Source: Patescibacteria group bacterium | GTDB lineage: Bacteria > Patescibacteriota > Microgenomatia > UBA1400 > PJMF01 | Length of the DNA stretch: 64,000 nucleotides | Direction of reading: 5' to 3' | NCBI GenBank assembly: GCA_041747555.1 | Contig: JBGTEY010000009.1 | Span: 26,473-90,472, forward strand | Part shown: one piece after another, positions 23-64,000 of the stretch | Layout: every line of letters begins with the position of its first letter | How positions within the stretch are numbered: the first letter of the stretch is position 1 | Made by a program: the position numbers and the translations under genes | The notes under the pieces: model-generated | Databases searched by the model: none | The model's input: the letters and a program-made list of their open reading frames with translations, nothing else | What the model was told of the DNA's origin: nothing

Positions 23-2518
23 TTGAAAGAGTTGATGTTCTATAGCCGATTCTTTGTGCTTGTTGTCTTATTTTTAACATTTGATGCGATTAGAGTTCTG
101 GCAAATTTGTGGCCAATTAGATATATCACTAGACCGTTAGCTCCGATGACAAGCAAGATTCAGAGTACAGTACTTGGTGTTTTTAATTCGAATTCTGATG
201 GAGAAATTTCATCTCTGGATTTAGTGCATTTAGCGATTAGACATTTAAAAGCAAAAAAAGCCAGAACTCTGATTACCATTGGTGGCATGTCGATTGGTTT
301 TGGATCGGTGATATTTTTATTGTCATTGGGGTATGGAACACAGCGATTGGTGGTATCTCGAGTAGCTCGATTGGATGAAATGAAGCAGATCACTGTCACC
401 GTCGGCCAGGCTACCAACCTGAGCCTGAATGACGAAACGCTGGCTGCATTTCAGGATATGGAGAATGTGAGCGCGGCATTGCCGATGATATCTACTGTAG
501 CTAGGGTTAACTACAACAATTCAGTCTCTGACGTTGTGGTGTATGCCGTCAGTCGCGCATTTTTGGAAGAGTCCGCCATTCAACCAACAAGCGGCAAATT
601 GTTTGATGATGGCGAGGTAGTTTCTAGAATTGAAAGCATGACTGGCGAAGTGGCAGGTGTTGAGGACGAAGTACAAGTTGGTGCAAAAATGTATAAGGAA
701 TTGTCGCTGGTGCGTTACTCAATCCATCCTCAAATCTGGAAACCCGTCTATGTAGAACCAAGCGAGAAAGCAGAAATAGTAGGTTACACGAGCAGGGTTC
801 CGGGCGAGCAGGACTCGAGTGAGGTCTGGGGAGAGTTTTATAGCTCCGCAAGCGAAGTGCCAGAAGGTGTTGATTTATTCGAAAATAGATTTAGTGGGTG
901 GGTGCAAGATAGTTTTCCGTTGTGGGTTAAAAGTGTTTGTTCTACTGATGAACTTGATTGTGTAGATGGATCGCTTAAAATGCTCAAAAATGGCAATGCT
1001 CAGCAGTACACCAAAGGATACATCACTGAGGACGATCTAAACATATATCGCTACAAAATAGTTTCAGAAAAACCACAGCAGCTGACTGAGGGCGCGGTCA
1101 TCAGCTCAGTACAATTTTCCATTCCTGGCTCACGATTTCCACAAGTGTATGGCACTACTGAGCTAAATTCTGCAGTGACTACCATTCATGCCTCTCAATC
1201 GAATCCAGATGAGCTTTTCTCTGGAGATTTAGTTGTTGGCGATGCATATGCAGGCGGAAATGGATGGGGATCAGTGGGTGTTAATCAAAATGGTAAAAGC
1301 GTTGGTTTGTGGGTGAGAGCCAAGGTGCCTCTGTGGAGAAAGTTAGATTGCGGCGAGTGTGCCGATCAGTACTTGAAAGAACTGGATTCAAATGATTTAC
1401 AAGTAGTTTCACAGGCAGTTGTCAAGGCGGGCGACGTGTCAATTGAAGGATTACCAACTGCTCCAAAAATCGGATCGGTACTTGGAGAAACTACAGAAAA
1501 TGGTGGTTCCACTACGCAAGTAGCAAGTGCATCGGGCACCATTGGAAGGTCCCCGTTAGCTAGTGGTTCCGCAGCTTTACTAGAGGAAGAAGGCGATTTA
1601 GACGTCGGTGACGGTACACAAATTTCTGCAAGAACACTAGAAGACGGCAGTGTTGAATGGGTAAGCATCGCTTCTGATTCTGCGGCGCTGTCTACCGATG
1701 ATCGTGAAATAGTTCCCTTTACACCAAGTTCTAAACGAGAAGTTGTAGTCAATGAAGCGATGTTGAGTATGCTCGGTATTACACTCGATGAGGCACTTAA
1801 TAAAACTTTTGATGCTGTGTTTGTGTTAGATCAAGAATTTTTTAGTAGCCAAGACATGCAAATTGAATCAGAGTCTGCAGTATTCGCGATCATTGGTGTT
1901 ATACCTGGTGATAAAAATGCCGCCTATTATCTTCCATTCTCTGATCTGAAGGGAATGGGGATAGAAAATTACTCGCAGGTCAAGGTCGTGGTAGCTGATC
2001 AGTCGGCCCTTCCGGCAGTTCGCCAACAAATAGAGTCGCTCGGATTTAAAACTACCTCAGTGACCGATACCGTTGGAAAAATTAATAGCCTTTTTGACAC
2101 AATTCGTCTGGTACTTTCTGCTCTTGGAATGGTTGCTTTAAGCGTCGCGGCACTGGGTATGTTTAATACGCTGACCGTATCTCTGCTGGAAAAAACTAGA
2201 GAAGTCGGTTTAATGAAGACCATTGGCATGAAGTCGAACGAAGTTAAGAGACTCTTCATTGCAGAATCAATTGTCATGGGTTTGTCTGGCGGAATTTTTG
2301 GACTGGTGTTGAGCACTGGCGCAGGATATGCATTGAGTGCTGTCTTGTCGACGATATCTGTAACCAAGGGTTTGGGGTACATTAACATAGTTCACACTCC
2401 GTTGTATTTGGCAGTTGGAATTGTGGCGGTGGCATTCTTGGTCGGAGTGTTGACTGGGTTGTATCCGTCGCATCGTGCAACCAAAATCTCAGCGCTCAAC
2501 GCACTCCGCTATGAGTAG
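23..2518 (+). CDS. ABC transporter permease, FtsX/MacB-like, with large extracytoplasmic domain; the 5' end may lie upstream of the window (alternative TTG/ATG starts at 23/35)
   Basis: N-terminal TM segment (RTLITIGGMSIGFGSVIFLLSLGYG) follows the typical MacB/FtsX pre-TM1 motif. A long extracytoplasmic domain is followed by three C-terminal TM helices (LVLSALGMVALSVAALGMFNTL, ESIVMGLSGGIFGLVLSTGAGYAL, LYLAVGIVAVAFLVGVLTGLYP). The reading frame is open to the window start. Confidence 0.7.
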   Translation: MKELMFYSRFFVLVVLFLTFDAIRVLANLWPIRYITRPLAPMTSKIQSTVLGVFNSNSDGEISSLDLVHLAIRHLKAKKARTLITIGGMSIGFGSVIFLLSLGYGTQRLVVSRVARLDEMKQITVTVGQATNLSLNDETLAAFQDMENVSAALPMISTVARVNYNNSVSDVVVYAVSRAFLEESAIQPTSGKLFDDGEVVSRIESMTGEVAGVEDEVQVGAKMYKELSLVRYSIHPQIWKPVYVEPSEKAEIVGYTSRVPGEQDSSEVWGEFYSSASEVPEGVDLFENRFSGWVQDSFPLWVKSVCSTDELDCVDGSLKMLKNGNAQQYTKGYITEDDLNIYRYKIVSEKPQQLTEGAVISSVQFSIPGSRFPQVYGTTELNSAVTTIHASQSNPDELFSGDLVVGDAYAGGNGWGSVGVNQNGKSVGLWVRAKVPLWRKLDCGECADQYLKELDSNDLQVVSQAVVKAGDVSIEGLPTAPKIGSVLGETTENGGSTTQVASASGTIGRSPLASGSAALLEEEGDLDVGDGTQISARTLEDGSVEWVSIASDSAALSTDDREIVPFTPSSKREVVVNEAMLSMLGITLDEALNKTFDAVFVLDQEFFSSQDMQIESESAVFAIIGVIPGDKNAAYYLPFSDLKGMGIENYSQVKVVVADQSALPAVRQQIESLGFKTTSVTDTVGKINSLFDTIRLVLSALGMVALSVAALGMFNTLTVSLLEKTREVGLMKTIGMKSNEVKRLFIAESIVMGLSGGIFGLVLSTGAGYALSAVLSTISVTKGLGYINIVHTPLYLAVGIVAVAFLVGVLTGLYPSHRATKISALNALRYE

Positions 2519-51648: not shown

Positions 51649-53472
51649 ATGTCTCAAATTCAAGAAGTAAAGGACGCGACCGATATCGTGACCATCATTG
51701 GTGAACGCTTGACGTTACAGCGCGCAGGCAGTTATTACAAGGCGAATTGTCCGTTTCATAGCGAGCGGTCACCGTCTTTCTTTGTAAATGAGGTAATCCA
51801 GAGATATAAATGTTATGGTTGTGGCGAGCATGGGGATGTGTTTGAGTTTCTAGAAAAATACGAGGGGCTCACATTTTATGAAACGCTCAAGTATTTGGCT
51901 GAAAAGGCCGGCGTCACGCTTAAGGAGCAAGTCAGAACCAAAGACGATGAGCTGCGCGACGAAGTACTCGCGGCACTCAATCTAGCAAAAGAGTATTATC
52001 ATTACCTACTAATCACGCACGAAGTTGGCGCACCCGCGCGGGAGTATCTCAAGAATCGTGGAATTTCTACTGCCATGATCAAGCATTTTGGTGTCGGATA
52101 CTCACTCGATTCCTGGGATGGGCTACTGACATTTTTAGAGAAAAAGAAGAAAATTTCACCGAAAGTATTGCTCGCGGCTGGTTTGGTAATTACAGGGAAA
52201 ACGAATCGGTCATACGATCGATTTAGGGGCAGAATTATGTTTCCGCTCAAGAATAATCGCGGTCAAGTGGTTGGTTTTTCTGGTAGAACGCTTGACTCAG
52301 ATGCGAAGGAAGCCAAATATATCAACTCACCAGAAACAATGGTATATCACAAGAGCTCGCTCCTCTTTGGGTATTCTGAACAACTGCAAGAAATTCGAAA
52401 AGCTAAAACCATGATCGTGGTTGAAGGCGAGTTTGATGTAATCTCATCTGTCCAGGCACACGTGCCCAATATAGTTGCCATCAAAGGATCGGCGTTTACC
52501 AAAGAACAAGCGCGACTCGTCGCCCGATTGGTAGAGACGGTGTATCTGAGTCTTGATACAGACGCTGCAGGTGTGAAGGCCACCAAAGAAGCACTAAAAG
52601 TCCTCAAACCACATGAAATTGACGTTCGTGTTATTAAGATTCCAGAAGGAAAAGATCCTGACGAATTAGCCCGACACCATCCTAAAGAATGGCGTGAGGC
52701 CACCAAGCGAAGTATTTCTGTGTATGAATTTTTGTTAGAGTCCGCACTCAAGCAACACGATCACACCGCACCAGAAGGTAAGCGGGCAATCATGAAAGAA
52801 ATTGCACCATACATCAGTGAAATAACTCATGCAGTAGAGCGTGAGCATTACATTACCCTGTTGGCAAGTGCGCTCAAGGTCAAGCAAGATGTAGTTCGTA
52901 GTGACGTGGCAATGTATAGTTCTAAAAAGCCAAAAGTAGCTGAGCGGGCAGCAGACCAAGATCAACGGGCTACAACAGATAACGCCAAAGCTGAGCAACG
53001 CCCACTTTCTGGAAGAGAACGAAATGAGCGGTACTCACTTTTCCTGCTGTTTTTGCATGAAGAATCCGATATTCCTATTAAGGCTCTTGAGCTAAAAGAA
53101 CTCCAGTTCACCTATCCCGGCGCACAGAAATTAATTACCTTACTCCAAGAATATGGTAAAAAACTCGCCAACACCCAACAAAAATTTTCACTCAGGGCAT
53201 TTTCGCAGCAATTGCCCTCTGATTTACAGCAGTTGTTGCTAGAGGTAACAACCAATCCCGAATTAATCTCACTCTCACAATCACTTGATCTCTCCAAAGA
53301 ATGGAAACATACCATCAAGGATCTTAAACAGAGCTCAGCACAACTAGAAGTAGAACGAATCGCCGCTCGGCTTGAAGAACTGGATGAAATAAGCGAGCTT
53401 TCACCAGAAGAAGAAGCCGAACAACAAGAGCTGCTCCAAAAAATTGTGACGCTTAAACATCAGTCGGTGTAA
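51649..53472 (+). CDS. dnaG: DNA primase
   Basis: Zinc finger (CPFHSERSPSF...CYGCGEHGD) and a TOPRIM domain (IVVEGEFDVIS...DTDAAG). Confidence 0.9.
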   Translation: MSQIQEVKDATDIVTIIGERLTLQRAGSYYKANCPFHSERSPSFFVNEVIQRYKCYGCGEHGDVFEFLEKYEGLTFYETLKYLAEKAGVTLKEQVRTKDDELRDEVLAALNLAKEYYHYLLITHEVGAPAREYLKNRGISTAMIKHFGVGYSLDSWDGLLTFLEKKKKISPKVLLAAGLVITGKTNRSYDRFRGRIMFPLKNNRGQVVGFSGRTLDSDAKEAKYINSPETMVYHKSSLLFGYSEQLQEIRKAKTMIVVEGEFDVISSVQAHVPNIVAIKGSAFTKEQARLVARLVETVYLSLDTDAAGVKATKEALKVLKPHEIDVRVIKIPEGKDPDELARHHPKEWREATKRSISVYEFLLESALKQHDHTAPEGKRAIMKEIAPYISEITHAVEREHYITLLASALKVKQDVVRSDVAMYSSKKPKVAERAADQDQRATTDNAKAEQRPLSGRERNERYSLFLLFLHEESDIPIKALELKELQFTYPGAQKLITLLQEYGKKLANTQQKFSLRAFSQQLPSDLQQLLLEVTTNPELISLSQSLDLSKEWKHTIKDLKQSSAQLEVERIAARLEELDEISELSPEEEAEQQELLQKIVTLKHQSV

Positions 53473-56783: not shown

Positions 56784-57881
56784 ATGACTGACCAAACCGT
56801 CCCCAAAGCTCTCACAAGCGACATTAAAAAGCTCCTCAAAAAAGCACGTCAACGAGGCCACGTTACCCAAGAAGAAATCTTGGATGTATTTGTTGAGCCA
56901 GAATTGTATGTTGATCAGCTCGATGACTTTTATGATGAAATTATTAAGAAAAATATCGATGTTTTCGAGTCTGTTGCAGAGGAAAATGACGACGACAGCG
57001 TTGATTCACTCACCGAAGAGCTAGAAACCTTAAGTACTTTAGGAGACAAAAGCGTCACTGATCCAGTACGCATGTACCTCAAGGAAATTGGCCGCATTCC
57101 GCTCCTCAATAGAGAAGAAGAAATTCGTCTCGCTCAGCAAGTTGAGGCTGGTGACAAAATGGCTAAAAAGCATCTTATCGACGCTAATTTACGGCTTGTG
57201 GTTTCTATTGCCAAGAAATATATCGGTCGTGGCATGAACTTTTTGGACCTGATCCAAGAGGGAAATAAAGGATTGATTCGGGCAGTTGAGAAATTTGACT
57301 GGACTAAAGGATTTAAATTCTCTACCTACGCAACTTGGTGGATAAGACAAGCAATTACTCGATCCATTGCTGATCAAGCGAGAACGATTCGTATCCCTGT
57401 GCACATGGTCGAGACGATCAATAAATTAATGCGAACTGCCAGAAGATTGATGCAGGATCTCGGACGTGAGCCCACACCAGAGGAAATTGGTGAGGCGATG
57501 GAGATGGATCCAGATAAGGTACGAGAAATTTTGAAAATCTCACAAAATACCACGTCTCTCGAGTCACCAGTTGGTGATGGCGATGACGACAGTACGCTTG
57601 GTGACTTTATTGCTGATGACCGTCAAGTGACTCCCTACCAGGCGACAAGCCAACAAATGTTGCGCGAAAATGTTGAAGAAGTGCTTGAGGCGCTGTCCGA
57701 CAGAGAAGCCAAAGTCTTGCGGATGCGATTCGGCCTGAGCGGTAACAAAATGATGACACTCGAGGAAGTTGGTCGTAAATTTGGTGTTACTAGAGAGCGA
57801 ATTCGTCAAATTGAAGCCAAAGCCCTCAGAAAACTAAAGCATCCTTCACGCCGCAAAATGCTCCAGGACTTTTTGGAGTAA
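56784..57881 (+). CDS. rpoD: RNA polymerase sigma-70 factor
   Basis: Region 2 ([43 protein letters not shown]), plus regions 3 and 4 ([20 protein letters not shown]). Confidence 0.9.
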
Positions 57882-57961: not shown

Positions 57962-59299
57962 ATGTTGGCTGTTCGCACTCTTTTTGCCACAATCCTCTCA
58001 ACCTTGTCTGAAACTCGACTGTTTCGCGAGGGCGGATTTCTGATCGCTGCATCCTTGACGACAAACGTTTTGATGTTGGTCTATAACTTGTACCTTGGGC
58101 GACAGCTCGATTTTGGAGAATTTGGCCTGGTGGTGGCGATTATCAGCGTTTTGAATTTGCTGCAACTTCCACTAACTGCCTACGCACGAGCCATCACTCA
58201 CCGCGCGGCATATTTTACGGGTAAAAATGAGGCCGCGCTCCCCACTCAATGGCGCTATTTCAGAAAAACAGCTTATTTTATCTCTGCACTCTTGACTCTA
58301 GGCTGGCTACTTGCTACACCTTGGTTGATGGAATTTTTCCATGTTAAGCGTGCGCTCCCATTTCTTCTAGTCAGTCCCATGTGGATTGTGAGCGTAGCGG
58401 CGGCTGTGGATACGGGGTTTTTGCTGGGGATGCATCGATTTAAGCGAGTCGCACAAATAGTGTTTATTGATACCATTTTGTATGTCTCGTGGACGGTGTT
58501 GCTGGTCGAGTTGGGAATGGGAAGATTTTTGTATACGGCATTGCCGCTGTCATCATTTGTGTCATTTTTCTTGGGATGGTGGGCAATTTCTGTTGAGATT
58601 AAAGCAATTGATGTCGTTAAAAAACGCGTGGTGCAGATTTTGGATTTCCCGTGGAAGTTTTTTGTGAATTCTGGATTGGCAGAGTTGGCGACGATGGCGT
58701 TTATTACGTTTGATGTGTTGCTCGTAAAACATTTTCTACCTCCTGCACAGGCTGGTCGATACGTGACGCTGGCTGTTGTTGGCAAAATGGTGTTCTATGC
58801 AAGTTCATTGATGGGTCAATTCGTTGTGCCGATTGTGAGTAAAGAAATGGGGTCGGGAAAAAATCCTAAGGGTGCGTTTGTGATCTTGTTTGGATTGGCC
58901 GCGATGTTGCTGACTGGGGCGTTGCTGGTTTTGGGATTATTTGGGCATATTACTGTTCCGTTACTCCTTGGCGAAAAAGCGAACTCGATTGTTGGTTTAT
59001 TGCCCTGGTATTTAGTTGGAATGAGTTGTTTTGGTCTAGCGCACATGATTGTGAGCTTTTATCAGGCTAAACAAGAATTTGCCATGACTTTAAATAGCAT
59101 TTTGGCGTCTGCCATGGTGGCAATTGGAATAGTTCTCTGGCATGACAGCGTTCGTGAAGTAAGTTGGGTGATGGGCGCGAGCGGTGTGCTGAGCTTGGCG
59201 TTTGCCTTGGCTCAGGTTTCTTTGCGAAGGACCAACTTGAGCAAAAATTTTGAGAAATTAGTCCGTACGAGTAAGGAATTTGTAAGGTTGGGACGATAG
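57962..59299 (+). CDS. MOP-superfamily flippase (Wzx/MurJ-like polysaccharide or lipid-II flippase)
   Basis: About 14 TM helices with polysaccharide-biosynthesis-protein topology; adjacent to polysaccharide-modifying genes. Confidence 0.55.
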   Translation: MLAVRTLFATILSTLSETRLFREGGFLIAASLTTNVLMLVYNLYLGRQLDFGEFGLVVAIISVLNLLQLPLTAYARAITHRAAYFTGKNEAALPTQWRYFRKTAYFISALLTLGWLLATPWLMEFFHVKRALPFLLVSPMWIVSVAAAVDTGFLLGMHRFKRVAQIVFIDTILYVSWTVLLVELGMGRFLYTALPLSSFVSFFLGWWAISVEIKAIDVVKKRVVQILDFPWKFFVNSGLAELATMAFITFDVLLVKHFLPPAQAGRYVTLAVVGKMVFYASSLMGQFVVPIVSKEMGSGKNPKGAFVILFGLAAMLLTGALLVLGLFGHITVPLLLGEKANSIVGLLPWYLVGMSCFGLAHMIVSFYQAKQEFAMTLNSILASAMVAIGIVLWHDSVREVSWVMGASGVLSLAFALAQVSLRRTNLSKNFEKLVRTSKEFVRLGR

Positions 59300-59300
59300 T

Positions 59301-60548
59301 ATGAACGTACCTAAGCACTACTTACTACCAAATATCACCAGTGCCGCAAATGTCGGTGACGAGGCAATGCTTGAGGTGGTGATGGGACTGATTCGTGAAG
59401 AGCACGAAGATGCTGCCATCACTATTCATGGTTTTGAGCCAGAGACGCATGCCGATCTAGACGTGCATGCGAATCGGCCATCGTTGTATTACTGGGCAGT
59501 GTTTGAGGATGAGCGGGCTATTGTGCGAGCGGCACGGTTGGTGCTGATGGTGCTTGGATGTTTGGCGGTGTGGTTATCTGTCACGCCTTTGTTGCAGCTC
59601 TTGAAATGGATCAGTCCAGCATTGACAAGTATTTTGGATGACTATCAAAAAGCCGATGTAATTGTATTTGTCGGTGGAGGGTACTTGCGGTCGAAAAAGG
59701 GAGTTTCTCAATCGCTAAACTTCTTGCTTCATCTGGTGCCGTTTGCACTCTCGACCACAACTGCGGCAAAAACTGTGGTTGCACCAATTAGCGTGGGGCC
59801 GTTTGGGTATCAGTGGCAGGCTCGATTGACCGCGTGGGTCTTTAAGAAGCTTGATGTAGTTACCGTGCGCGAGCGATTTTCGCACAAAGTTTTGGCAGAG
59901 GCAGGTTTAGAAGGACATGTGTTGGCGACTGATCATGCGTTGTTGATGACGCCACTCAAGGTACACTCAGGACCAGGATCAAAGCAATCGCGCCCTCCGG
60001 TAATTGGTTTTACCATCAGAAACTGGCTTGATGCAGATACACAGAGTCAGTTGGAGCGCAGTTATGCATTGGCTTTGGCTGCTGTTTCGAAAGAGACGGG
60101 AGCCACAATTCAGCCAATTATCCAAGTAAGTGCACCGCGATTTGGCGAAGATGATGGTGCGGCAACTGCTCGGGTGGTGAAATTGCTGCACTCAATGAGT
60201 GTGAAGGTTGAAGAAACGGTTCAGATACAAGGCGTTTCGCACGGCAAAGCAGTCTACGGCAAGCTGACCGCATTAGTCGGCATGCGCATGCACTCGAATA
60301 TTTTTGCTGGCACTCAATTTGTACCGTTTGTGCCAATTTCGTACGAATACAAAACAGAAGGCATTTCAGAAGATTTTGAACTAGATGCGTACTGCATTCG
60401 ATCAGAAGATGTCACAGCAGAAAAACTGACCACGAATCTCTCTGCAGTCTTTACCAACAGTCAAACACTCTCAAAAAATATTGCCCGCACTCTCGCGCGA
60501 ATCCAAAAACGCGAGCATGCTCGCTGGCAGAAAGTTTTTAGGTCATGA
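59301..60548 (+). CDS. Polysaccharide pyruvyl transferase family protein
   Basis: N-terminal NITSAANVGDEAMLEVV, a GNxGDeail-like motif. Confidence 0.5.
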   Translation: MNVPKHYLLPNITSAANVGDEAMLEVVMGLIREEHEDAAITIHGFEPETHADLDVHANRPSLYYWAVFEDERAIVRAARLVLMVLGCLAVWLSVTPLLQLLKWISPALTSILDDYQKADVIVFVGGGYLRSKKGVSQSLNFLLHLVPFALSTTTAAKTVVAPISVGPFGYQWQARLTAWVFKKLDVVTVRERFSHKVLAEAGLEGHVLATDHALLMTPLKVHSGPGSKQSRPPVIGFTIRNWLDADTQSQLERSYALALAAVSKETGATIQPIIQVSAPRFGEDDGAATARVVKLLHSMSVKVEETVQIQGVSHGKAVYGKLTALVGMRMHSNIFAGTQFVPFVPISYEYKTEGISEDFELDAYCIRSEDVTAEKLTTNLSAVFTNSQTLSKNIARTLARIQKREHARWQKVFRS

Positions 60549-61729
60549 AAGTTTTTGAACCAACCCTCCAGACAAATGGTGCGATCAGTCGCGTAGAGTG
60601 CCAAGTTGAGTATCGTGGGACTCGGGACACGCTTTGGATTGAGTTTGACAGTAAGTACGCGCCATTCGTAACACTCGATGCAACGGCGGTGGCTAGTCCA
60701 TTTGTGATGCCGGCCTCGAGAAGAAATGAGTCACTAGAGATTGCAGGCAGCGTTTCAACGCAGTGGCTCGAAGGCGCAAACGCGATCATTGATCGCGCGG
60801 TGAGTTGGGATCATGGTTTCAAAAAAACTACTATAGCTGCACAAAAATCACAGCCAGACGCTGATAGAATTGCCGATCACGTCGGCGCGTTTTTCTCTGG
60901 TGGAATTGATTCTTTTAGCACCCTGATCAAGTACACAAATGATAAAAATACCCCGCTCAGCCACCTATTTTTTGTCCATGGATTTGATATTGCGATTGAT
61001 AATGAAGAGCTGATCAACGAGGTCCGCCCACGAATTCAAGAAATTGCTCAGAAATCAAACATGGAATTGATCGATATTAGAACCAATATTAGACAGATCT
61101 CCGACACGATCCTGGGCTGGGAAATGGCGCACGGTGGTGCACTGGCGATGGTGGCATTGCTTTTTAGACGAGGTTTTAAAACAATTATTATCCCTGGAGC
61201 TGGAGCAAACACTTGGGCAGAACCTTGGGGGAGCAGTCAGTACCTTGACCCACTTTGGAGCACCGAAACCTTAGAAGTTGTGCACGACATGGATCACATG
61301 CATCGCTACGACAAGGTCAGGGAGCATATCGCAAAATCACCGCTCGCACTCGCTCATGCCCGTGTGTGTTGGCGAAATACTGCTTATAATTGTGGTGTGT
61401 GCGATAAGTGCATGATGACGATGGTGGAGCTGAGGATGGCAGGTGCGCTTGAGAAATGCAGGACTTTTCCTGATGAACTTGATCTGGAGCGACTTTCTAA
61501 CATGTACTCAACGCCATTTAGTGTGCGGATGCAGGTTGAGGAAGCAGCAGAGTATTTGCAAAAAACAGGGAATGATCCAGAGTTACTGGAAGCGCTCGAG
61601 TCGAGCCTTGAATATAGCGATCGTCCTGGGATACTGAGGCAGATTATTTCTGTTGCCCAACAGCTTGACTGGAAGTATAACGAGAGTCGATTGTTTGTGT
61701 TTTTGCACAAGCGGCTGCGGTGGAGTTAA
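60545..61729 (+). CDS. PP-loop ATP pyrophosphatase superfamily protein (possible N-acetyl-sugar amidotransferase)
   Basis: SGGxDS motif (AFFSGGIDSF) and a C-terminal Cys cluster (CWRNTAYNCGVCDKC). Confidence 0.5.
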   Translation: MKVFEPTLQTNGAISRVECQVEYRGTRDTLWIEFDSKYAPFVTLDATAVASPFVMPASRRNESLEIAGSVSTQWLEGANAIIDRAVSWDHGFKKTTIAAQKSQPDADRIADHVGAFFSGGIDSFSTLIKYTNDKNTPLSHLFFVHGFDIAIDNEELINEVRPRIQEIAQKSNMELIDIRTNIRQISDTILGWEMAHGGALAMVALLFRRGFKTIIIPGAGANTWAEPWGSSQYLDPLWSTETLEVVHDMDHMHRYDKVREHIAKSPLALAHARVCWRNTAYNCGVCDKCMMTMVELRMAGALEKCRTFPDELDLERLSNMYSTPFSVRMQVEEAAEYLQKTGNDPELLEALESSLEYSDRPGILRQIISVAQQLDWKYNESRLFVFLHKRLRWS

Positions 61730-61744
61730 GAACAACCATTCACG

Positions 61745-62623
61745 CTATTTGTGATTTTTTGACGCTAAATTGTATCCAGCACGCAGTAATCGATTCCAAA
61801 TCGGATACGGCAGTACTTTTCTGGTCAAATAAAACACCCATGCATCCACGCCGATCAGATACCTGAGTCGCGGGTTAGGATACTCTGCAATTTTTAGAAA
61901 TAAATCTGAAACACGCTGCGGATCTTGTAATGAACTCGTGATTCTTGCAAACAGATGGTCTTTGACACTGCTCCAACGATTGAGCATGTTTGTGATCATT
62001 TTCCCATGCGGCGTGTGTTGGCCCATTTCATCAGCAAGTTTTCTTTTTTTGCCAAAATCAGTGCGAAAATGCCCGGGTTCTACGAGCACTGCCGTTACGA
62101 CTTCTGCTGCGAGTTCAAAACGCATAGATTCGGTGAGGGTTTCTATGGCGAACTTGGAGGCAGAGTAGACGCCATAGAGCGGGAACGAGACTCTGCCGTT
62201 TATGGAACTGAGGTTGATGATCGTGCCTTTTGATTTTTTGAGGAGTGGTAAGAATGCTTTGGTAACGCGCAAAACTCCATAAACGTTGGTATCAAATTGC
62301 GTTTGGATTTCTTCTATTGAGAAATCAAGAACCGGGCCAATGTAGCCGAAGCCGGCGTTGTTGATGAGTACTGAGAGTGAGTCGGTGTGTTTTTTGACCT
62401 CTGTCAGGGCAGAATCAATTGATTTTTGATTGGTGACGTCGAGTTCTAGGACGTGGAGATTGGGCAGATTGCGGTCGGTGAGCTCTTTTGCACCAGAGGA
62501 ATTGAGGTCGCGGAGGGTGGCAAAGGTGAGGTAGCCTGCTTCTGCAAATTGAATCGCGGCCAGAAAGCCAAATCCAGAGCTGCAGCCGGTGATGAGGACG
62601 GATTTAGGGGTAGTTTTTGACAT
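61745..62623 (-). CDS. Short-chain dehydrogenase/reductase (SDR)
   Basis: TGxxxGxG motif (VLITGCSSGFGFLAA), NNAG, and YxxxK (YSASKFAIE). Confidence 0.8.
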   Translation of the reverse strand: MSKTTPKSVLITGCSSGFGFLAAIQFAEAGYLTFATLRDLNSSGAKELTDRNLPNLHVLELDVTNQKSIDSALTEVKKHTDSLSVLINNAGFGYIGPVLDFSIEEIQTQFDTNVYGVLRVTKAFLPLLKKSKGTIINLSSINGRVSFPLYGVYSASKFAIETLTESMRFELAAEVVTAVLVEPGHFRTDFGKKRKLADEMGQHTPHGKMITNMLNRWSSVKDHLFARITSSLQDPQRVSDLFLKIAEYPNPRLRYLIGVDAWVFYLTRKVLPYPIWNRLLRAGYNLASKNHK

Positions 62624-62774
62624 AGTTCAGTATAGCAAGGGTCCCATGAAATTGTAGGACCGCACAAACCCGCTCGATCTGTAGTAAAAGCGGTGTTTGT
62701 TTGTTACAATACAGTTCGCTATCTGATGTGCCGGCAGCGACGCCGACACTGACGAGGCACTTAACAAGTGAAGA

Positions 62775-63096
62775 TCCCCTGTAGCTCAACGGCAGAGCGC
62801 CCGGCTGTAAGATATTGCAGCTTCCGTCAGAAATGGCGGAATGATAATTGGGTGAACTGCGGGAAGCCTAACCTTTGTATCGCGAAGTATGGTAATCCGC
62901 AGCCAAGCCGTGTTGAAAGACACGGAAGGTTCAGAGACTAGGTGTGTACACCCAGACCCCGCAAACTGCGGGGCAGAGCGCCCGACACCTTCATTGACAC
63001 CGTCAATAAGGTGATGAGATAGTCCATGCCAGCCAGAAATGGTTGGGTCACGTGTAACCGGTAGGTTGGAGGTTCGAATCCTCCCGGGGGAGCCAT
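62775..63096 (+). tRNA. tRNA (most likely Asn-GUU; alternative Thr-UGU) interrupted in the anticodon loop by a group I intron
   Basis: 5' exon TCCCCTG-TA-GCTCAACGGCAGAGC-G-CCCGG-CTGT. 3' exon TAACCGGTAGGTTGGAGGTTCGAATCCTCCCGGGGGAGCCA (T-arm, acceptor, discriminator G, encoded CCA). The candidate P1 pairs exon GGCTGT with intron GCAGCT, with U.G at the splice site. Confidence 0.7.
62809..63055 (+). ncRNA. Group I self-splicing intron (~247 nt) within the tRNA
   Basis: Canonical core elements: P (TGCGGGAAG), Q (AATCCGCAGC), R (GTTCAGAGACTA), and S (GAGATAGTCC). P7 pairing GACTA/TAGTC. P9 hairpin CCAGCC-agaaa-TGGTTGG. Terminal G before the 3' exon. Confidence 0.7.
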
Positions 63097-63140
63097 ATAG
63101 ATCTTATCCGAACTAAATTTTCTGCCCAGAAAGTTGACCT

Positions 63141-63731
63141 ATGGGTTCAGAGAGTTTAGCAATTCCTAACGACGAGAGTAATCTCCTATTTTTACTCTTA
63201 GGAGCATTAATCACTTTTATAAGTGCGTATTCAATTGAAATAATAAAGAACTGGCTTCGTAAAAGAGAAAAGTCAAAGAATTTTAAGCTTTTCATTAGGT
63301 TAGAGTTAGTTGTTATTGCAAAGACATTGGAAAAGCTTCAAACTGGCTTAGAGTACGGTGCTTATTATGATTATCTATTGTTAGATAGAATTGCTGAAAG
63401 CATAAAAAGTTTAGATAAAGCTAGAACTGATGTAATTTATCTGACAGACTCAGTTTTAAAAGAGAAATTTGTTGATGTTATTTCCGAAATATCAAATTAC
63501 ATCGCAGTTGTCAGGCAAATTCAACAACTTTTTTATAGTGATAGAGATAAAGCTCAAGAATCTAAATCAAAATCTTCCAAAAATCCAAAGACAAAAACTC
63601 AAGAGGCTACGGAATCTCTAACAATAGAAGGGGCTGTAGAGCTTTTTCATAACAGAAAAATCGAAAAAAATATTATTTATGTAGAGATTAAAAGAAAACT
63701 TGAAGATCTAATTAATGATCTAGAAAATTAA
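63141..63731 (+). CDS. Hypothetical membrane-anchored protein
   Basis: ORF with one N-terminal TM helix; the region is AT-rich. Confidence 0.4.
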   Translation: MGSESLAIPNDESNLLFLLLGALITFISAYSIEIIKNWLRKREKSKNFKLFIRLELVVIAKTLEKLQTGLEYGAYYDYLLLDRIAESIKSLDKARTDVIYLTDSVLKEKFVDVISEISNYIAVVRQIQQLFYSDRDKAQESKSKSSKNPKTKTQEATESLTIEGAVELFHNRKIEKNIIYVEIKRKLEDLINDLEN

Positions 63732-63912
63732 TATTTAGTTTTCAAAATAAGATTCGGATAAAGTTCTATAAAGGGACCAAAATACCCTCAAATTTTCCCC
63801 TCAATAAAATTTTTAAAAATGGGTTTAAACATACCCCACCCCAAACTCACACGCTTGAGCCTCAACCATTTTCTGTAGTAAAATGTACTTATTAAATTAT
63901 TAGGAGTAAAAA

Positions 63913-64000
63913 AATGAGTAAACTAATTACATGTATCTGGTTTGCGAACAATGATGGAGAAGAAGCAGCAAATTACTATATTGATACGTTCAATTCAGCT
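63913..64000 (+). CDS. PhnB/VOC-like (3-demethylubiquinone-9 3-methyltransferase-domain) protein, 5' fragment truncated by the window end
   Basis: MSKLITCIWFANNDGEEAANYYIDTF matches the ITPCLWF...AEEA..FY N-terminus of the PhnB-like family. Confidence 0.4.

Follow-up and report, generated by a model that had tools for sequence, protein, structure and literature searches.

Structure of the tRNA-Asn gene

A tRNA-Asn(GUU) gene lies at positions 62775-63095 on the forward strand of the window (the whole stretch of 64,000 nucleotides that was analysed), and a group I intron separates bases 35 and 36 of its anticodon. Very probably, the gene is functional and the intron, a 246-nt insertion of subgroup IA between U35 and U36, is self-splicing; we infer its catalysis and its tertiary contacts. 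The intron is a new example of the published tRNA-Asn 35/36 class and no new kind.

The 5′ exon (62775-62808) contains the acceptor strand, the D arm, the 5′ strand of the anticodon stem and C32 U33 G34 U35, its last base being the splice-site U. The intron follows at 62809-63054. The 3′ exon (63055-63095; UAACCGG...GGGGGAGCCA) contains U36 A37 A38, the 3′ strand of the anticodon stem, the variable loop, the T arm, the acceptor strand, the discriminator base G73 and an encoded CCA. These features, and all intron elements given below, are on the forward strand. The exons were delimited by ARAGORN with introns allowed and by cloverleaf pairs (pair counts for the 5′ exon), supplemented by an exon regular expression and the alignment of 38 homologues for the 5′ exon and by an intron-less homologue, L059, for the 3′ exon.

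When introns were permitted, ARAGORN reported a tRNA-Asn(gtt) whose intron follows position 35 and is 246 nt long. The gene was missed by the Rfam tRNA model and by ARAGORN under default settings, both of which called only two tRNA-Ser genes in the window. A genome of this kind would therefore appear to lack tRNA-Asn and would receive too low a completeness score, or the gene may be taken for tRNA-Thr by tools that allow introns. The main relevance of the locus is for annotation, and no new question is opened by the intron alone.

The preliminary description had proposed that a group I intron splits a tRNA gene, probably tRNA-Asn(GUU), and the intron-aware ARAGORN search, Rfam, the pair counts and L059 all agreed with this. 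Its intron of about 247 nt is real, with an actual length of 246 nt. Two of its boundaries needed correction: the 3′ exon begins at 63055, not 63056, and the last base of the tRNA, encoded CCA included, is 63095, not 63096.

The cloverleaf was 95.9% paired by pair counts in alignment A1 (38 sequences, described below). Four anticodon-stem pairs, which span the intron, were compensated in 38 of 38 sequences; thus both tRNA halves belong to one gene. U1-A72 and G73 were invariant. The top pair of the anticodon stem (A1 columns 28/465; tRNA positions 27/43) was non-standard in 33 of the 38 sequences and is C.U in the window, so that the mismatch itself is conserved.

A promoter and terminator scan called no site upstream of the tRNA and only chance-level sites within and after the gene. 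An extended -10-like motif, TGTTACAAT, is found at 62702-62710, about 65 nt before the tRNA begins, with no -35 match. It may be the pre-tRNA promoter, although the consensus scan did not call it.

Homologous introns and covariation

The P7-P7.1 signature CAGAGACTAGGTGNGTACACC was found at 55 loci when we scanned the species-representative genomes of GTDB. At 37 of them, mostly in metagenome-assembled genomes (MAGs) of Microgenomatia (Patescibacteria), the tRNA-Asn exons were clean, the arrangement was CTGT|intron...G|TAA and the introns measured 173-280 nt. The other 18 loci were left out of the alignment because the exon regular expression failed, in some cases probably since the contig ends within the gene. 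The same signature had no match in the viral contigs scanned.

Alignment A1 was made with MAFFT from the window sequence and these 37 relatives, and the structure was drawn by hand on the window sequence. In A1, 93.3% of the cells were paired, compared with 37-46% when the partners were slid by 1-3 columns, although a window-drawn structure on a non-structural alignment makes the paired fraction too high in some helices and too low in others. Changes on both sides were seen for 52 of the 87 pairs, and none of 500 shuffles attained any of the five measures used. In P2, P6a, P8 and P9, every pair changed on both sides. Because the search pattern prescribed P7 and P7.1, their invariance in the 38 sequences gives no independent support. 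In the P3-P8 core, including the P3/P7 pseudoknot, two-sided changes were found in P3, P4, P6a and P8. For the Microgenomatia branch, A1 supplies comparative evidence in favour of the fold.

Several relatives carried insertions. At L002:1674-1993, L022:4634-4966 and L034:5318-5669, the P1 loop, which separates the 5′ splice site from the guide, carries an insertion of 40-55 nt. The published HNH endonuclease genes of other tRNA-Asn introns sit at this place. These insertions may be remnants of lost endonuclease genes. At L003:7615-7944 and L029:3954-4292, an insertion of about 40-50 nt with two small hairpins aligned within the J3/4-P4 5′ strand of the catalytic core, an unusual place for expansion.

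Secondary structure of the intron

The Rfam model Intron_gpI (RF00028) matched 62799-63046 (+) over its full length (1-253) with 81.1 bits (gathering score 50) and an E value of 4.8e-19, a match far beyond chance. The Rfam check suggested in the preliminary description was thus positive, and the P, Q, R and S core that it had listed was found in full: P (TGCGGG, 62858-62863), Q (TCCGCA, 62896-62901), R (GTTCAGAGACTA, 62929-62940) and S (GAGATAGTCC, 63016-63025), together with its GACTA/TAGTC pairing for P7.

Support for the intron as a whole came from this match, from the pair counts (n = 38) and from folding. The minimum free energy (MFE) of the window sequence was -93.2 kcal/mol against a shuffle mean of -69.9 (z = -4.67), and the unconstrained MFE fold recovered P2, P3, P4, P5, P6a, P7.1, P7.2, P8 and P9.

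P1 (62803-62822) is formed by exon GGCUGU (62803-62808; tRNA positions 30-35) and guide GCAGCU (62817-62822) around an 8-nt L1 loop. The wobble at the 5′ splice site, U62808.G62817, was U.G in 38 of 38 sequences, and the terminal guanosine (omega-G, 63054) at the 3′ splice site directly preceded TAA in 38 of 38; the P1 pairing, its U.G pair and the terminal G had all been read correctly at the outset. Four P1 pairs, C32-U35 with GCAG, were invariant (n = 38). Beyond them, P1 showed no covariation with the anticodon stem, and columns 31-32 were unpaired in 13-17 of the 38 sequences.

P2 (62823-62840) is a hairpin with a GAAA tetraloop, recovered in the MFE fold, in which 7 of 7 pairs changed on both sides and 95% of the cells were paired. 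P3 pairs its 5′ strand (62848-62854) with 62979-62985; it was 96% paired by pair counts, with double changes in three pairs. P4 (62858-62863 with 62896-62901) encloses P5 within 62858-62901, and G-C/C-G and C-G/A-U swaps were seen there in 16 of 38 sequences each. The P5 motif CCUAAC...UAUGG (62867-62872, 62888-62892) resembles the 11-nt tetraloop receptor. P6 and P6a (62903-62929), again with a GAAA tetraloop, were supported by pair counts and the MFE fold.

P7, the guanosine-binding helix, pairs GACUA (62936-62940) with UAGUC (63020-63024), the latter within the S element. It is followed by two hairpins, P7.1 (GGUG UGUA CACC, 62941-62952), seen in the MFE fold, and P7.2 (CCCCGC AAACU GCGGGG, 62957-62973), seen in the MFE fold and the alignment. 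P7.2 is optional: only 3 of the 38 members have the hairpin, and the three copies differ by fully compensated changes. P8 with P8a (62986-63013) was recovered in the MFE fold and had double changes in 12 of 12 pairs; its cells were only 75% paired because its length varies and MAFFT is not structure-aware. P9 (63029-63046) is a hairpin with a GAAA tetraloop, also in the MFE fold, with double changes in 7 of 7 pairs and 94% pairing. The tail after P9 is 8 nt long and ends in the terminal G.

Subgroup IA is marked by additional helices, P7.1 and P7.2, located between P7 and the P3 3′ strand. Judged from these predicted hairpins and from its similarity to published IA1 and IA2 members, the intron appears typical of subgroup IA. 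P7.1 and P7.2 are among the features used to classify group I introns (review, PMC3984707), and the published tRNA-Asn 35/36 relatives are labelled IA1 or IA2 (Table S5 in Nakagawa et al. 2026, PMC13011429).

Identity of the host tRNA and an intron-less allele

The same sequence could be read as tRNA-Thr(UGU) with the intron two nucleotides upstream, at 33/34, so that the 5′ exon ends at U62806 and the 3′ exon starts at 63053. ARAGORN takes the shifted product as Thr(tgt), as it does many family members, which it reports as Thr(tgt) i(33); Nakagawa et al. 2026 (PMC13011429) documented this ambiguity too. At the tRNA-Thr boundary, however, the splice-site U would be in a Watson-Crick U-A pair in 38 of 38 sequences, whereas U35 forms the canonical U.G in 38 of 38. 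The splice-site U of the Rfam consensus aligns to 62808. A homologue that was spliced in vitro, the tRNA-Asn intron of GCA_016700035.1, was precisely self-spliced and sequenced as Asn at 35/36 (PMC13011429).

Further results also argue for asparagine. L059 (Ga0206126_10077844), a 1.7-kb metagenome contig, contains an intron-less tRNA at 458-532 (-) that was called Asn(gtt); 74 of its 75 bases agree with the predicted spliced product, including all those across the junction. Among five listed rows of full-length matches in E. coli, three were annotated tRNA-Asn and the top two tRNA-Arg; full-length matches occurred at a median of four places per E. coli genome. U1-A72 with G73 fits the identity elements of bacterial tRNA-Asn. 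From the position of the U.G pair, L059 and the E. coli matches, we rejected the tRNA-Thr(UGU) assignment as extremely improbable.

The ORF downstream of the L059 tRNA had a protein-level match to that of the intron-bearing locus L018. L059 is therefore probably a relative of the intron-bearing lineages, as judged from these sequences, and the presence of the intron varies within the group.

Predicted splicing pathway

The intron almost certainly self-splices by the standard two-step guanosine pathway; the steps proposed here follow that pathway and the tested homologue. In the precursor, P1 would form between GGCUGU (tRNA positions 30-35) and the guide in the intron, GCAGCU. A free guanosine in P7 would attack after U35, the position marked by the U.G wobble. 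The terminal G63054 would next occupy the guanosine site, and the 5′ exon would attack after G63054. Joining of CUGU to UAA would give the anticodon loop CUGUUAA with the anticodon GUU. The three GAAA loops (L2, L6a and L9) and the receptor-like P5 motif probably hold the compact fold.

Could the intron instead be a decayed relic that no longer splices, the locus being a tRNA pseudogene with an intact tRNA-Asn elsewhere in the genome? An intron-less allele does exist in a related organism (L059), and the visible portion of this genome is 64 kb. All the core helices, the U.G pair, the omega-G and the exon cloverleaf are nevertheless intact, and the compensated changes in core and cloverleaf across 38 lineages point to purifying selection acting on the structure. 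According to Nakagawa et al. 2026 (PMC13011429), a genome with such an intron seldom has an uninterrupted tRNA gene for the same anticodon as well. Decay of this kind is thus very unlikely, and we prefer an active intron in a functional tRNA-Asn gene.

No ORF in the intron was long enough for a homing endonuclease. The lack of an endonuclease gene suggests that the intron is inherited mainly vertically.

Comparison with known introns

Classes of known tRNA introns rose from 4 to 21 with tFind (Williams 2020, bioRxiv 10.1101/2020.01.27.920355); one of them is the tRNA-Asn class, which PMC13011429 cites as class Asn.4Ug of that work. Nakagawa et al. (mSystems 2026, PMC13011429) reported 15 group I introns at 35/36 of tRNA-Asn(GUU), nearly all of subgroup IA, in 95 complete Patescibacteria genomes. 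Of the 22 intron-bearing tRNAs that they found in Patescibacteria, 15 were tRNA-Asn, the commonest host, and annotation tools often missed these genes or called them Thr. In the light of these two studies, the earlier remark that tRNA-Asn would be an unusual host is outdated.

The window intron agrees with the published Patescibacteria class in its host tRNA, insertion point and CUGU|...G|UAA boundaries. It also has in common with that class the internal guide sequence (GCAGC), the Q, R and S blocks and the ...CACGUG 3′ end (Table S3 in PMC13011429), the IA-type extra hairpins after P7, the absence of an endonuclease gene, as in most members, and the failure of default annotation with its Thr/Asn ambiguity. 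The precursor was 70-74% identical, over aligned columns, to five published Patescibacteria tRNA-Asn precursors, including that of GCA_016700035.1. It differs in belonging to a Microgenomatia-type sub-lineage with a GGUGNGUACACC P7.1, for which the closest P7.1 type is that of GCA_016700135.1, and in adding the optional P7.2. Its 5′ junction string was not found in the part of the supplementary sequences of PMC13011429 available to us. The window thus adds one lineage to a recently described intron class that persists in very small genomes.

The classical bacterial tRNA introns, of subgroup IC3, are those of tRNA-Leu(UAA) at 34/35 in cyanobacteria, tRNA-fMet at 33/34, Azoarcus tRNA-Ile and Agrobacterium tRNA-Arg at 36/37. 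Like the present intron, they are small, ORF-less and self-splicing, are inserted in the anticodon loop, form P1 from bases of the anticodon loop and stem, and have a core stabilised by GNRA loops. In contrast to it, they lack P7.1 and P7.2, and their insertion positions and host tRNAs differ. In aligned columns, the window precursor was only about 64% identical to the Nostoc tRNA-Leu precursor, and most of this agreement fell in the universal core.

The phage IA introns (T4 td, nrdB and sunY; Twort) have the IA architecture in common with the window intron, including the additional helices that follow P7 and precede the P3 3′ strand; Michel and Westhof are said to have described this architecture in 1990. 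Unlike the window intron, they interrupt protein-coding genes, are of greater size and frequently contain genes for endonucleases.

Short family members without P9

Eight members have introns of only 173-191 nt and no P9, with 6-8 nt from the 3′ strand of P7 to the terminal G: L013:1-245 (-), L035:5362-5607, L010:2245-2495 (-), L028, L038, L012, L055 and L023. The exons of these members are intact; the introns of L013 and L035 are 173 and 174 nt long. The four of the eight that were scored had 53-67 bits, all above the Rfam gathering score. The minimum reported for a bacterial tRNA intron is 184 nt (Nakagawa et al. 2026, PMC13011429), and L013 is shorter. If active, such introns would fall below this minimum and be among the smallest natural group I ribozymes.

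We put forward, as less likely than not, a composite proposal: that these P9-less mini-introns are active, that a P1 of four bases, CUGU, explains the restriction to GUN hosts, and that the introns may spread without an endonuclease by reverse splicing. The invariant part of P1 is only C32-U35 (CUGU), which would explain why 35/36 introns are found only in tRNAs with GUN anticodons (Asn, Asp and Tyr). Such a short requirement, together with the intron-less allele in a relative, leaves room for reverse splicing as a route of endonuclease-free spread.

Genomic context

Upstream of the tRNA gene, the window contains dnaG (51649-53472) and rpoD (56784-57881). RpoD was 84-87% identical to those of 'Patescibacteria group bacterium BroJett025' (L046), L047, L014 and L011, and 59-72% identical to those of Woese-, Beckwith-, Davies- and Shapirobacteria MAGs. 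In these relatives, an intron-bearing tRNA-Asn is found 0.6-2.7 kb downstream of rpoD; the gap in the window is 4.9 kb. By these comparisons, the source of the window is probably a Patescibacterium of Microgenomatia type. Between rpoD and tRNA-Asn, the window has a four-gene block (57962-62623; GC 0.47 against 0.42 for the window). It encodes a 445-aa multi-pass membrane protein, a CsaB/WcaK-like polysaccharide pyruvyl transferase, a 394-aa protein and, on the opposite strand, an SDR oxidoreductase. No homologues of the four genes were found in the fetched loci of the relatives, and the ORF at 60545-61729 had no match in Pfam or NCBIfam.

Downstream of the tRNA, GC falls to 0.31 (63097-64000) against 0.42 for the whole window. 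The only complete ORF there (196 aa, 63141-63731) had no Pfam or NCBIfam match and no homologue in the relatives' loci, and a further ORF from 63915 runs off the window. Two short Logan contigs from one run, SRR28170463, which holds DNA identical to the locus, added about 156 bases downstream. The preliminary description had suggested that this AT-rich region marks an integration site. The low GC content and the ORF lacking homologues and family matches would fit a mobile element at 63097-64000 that used the tRNA gene as its attachment site. However, a search for repeats of the tRNA 3′ end across the window found no copy, its sole match being the T-loop of a tRNA-Ser, and the 905 bases visible downstream of the tRNA contain no integrase. 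Relatives differ in the upstream DNA (57962-62623) as well, which means that variation is not confined to the 3′ side. Integration here is thus unlikely, the suggestion being unsupported rather than refuted.

The intron signature also occurs in many third-party-annotation (TPA) MAG records whose titles read 'uncultured Gammaproteobacteria' or 'Pseudomonadales' (L004, L007, L011, L013-L021, L026, L028, L032, L033, L036-L038, L040, L047, L048, L051, L054 and L055). Possibly the same holds for L009 (Pedobacter), L035 (Eisenbacteria) and L043 (Nevskiaceae). Most such TPA records have the rpoD-tRNA-Asn-intron arrangement, with an RpoD up to 87% identical to that of a Patescibacteria genome. The titles of these TPA MAG records are probably wrong taxonomic labels.
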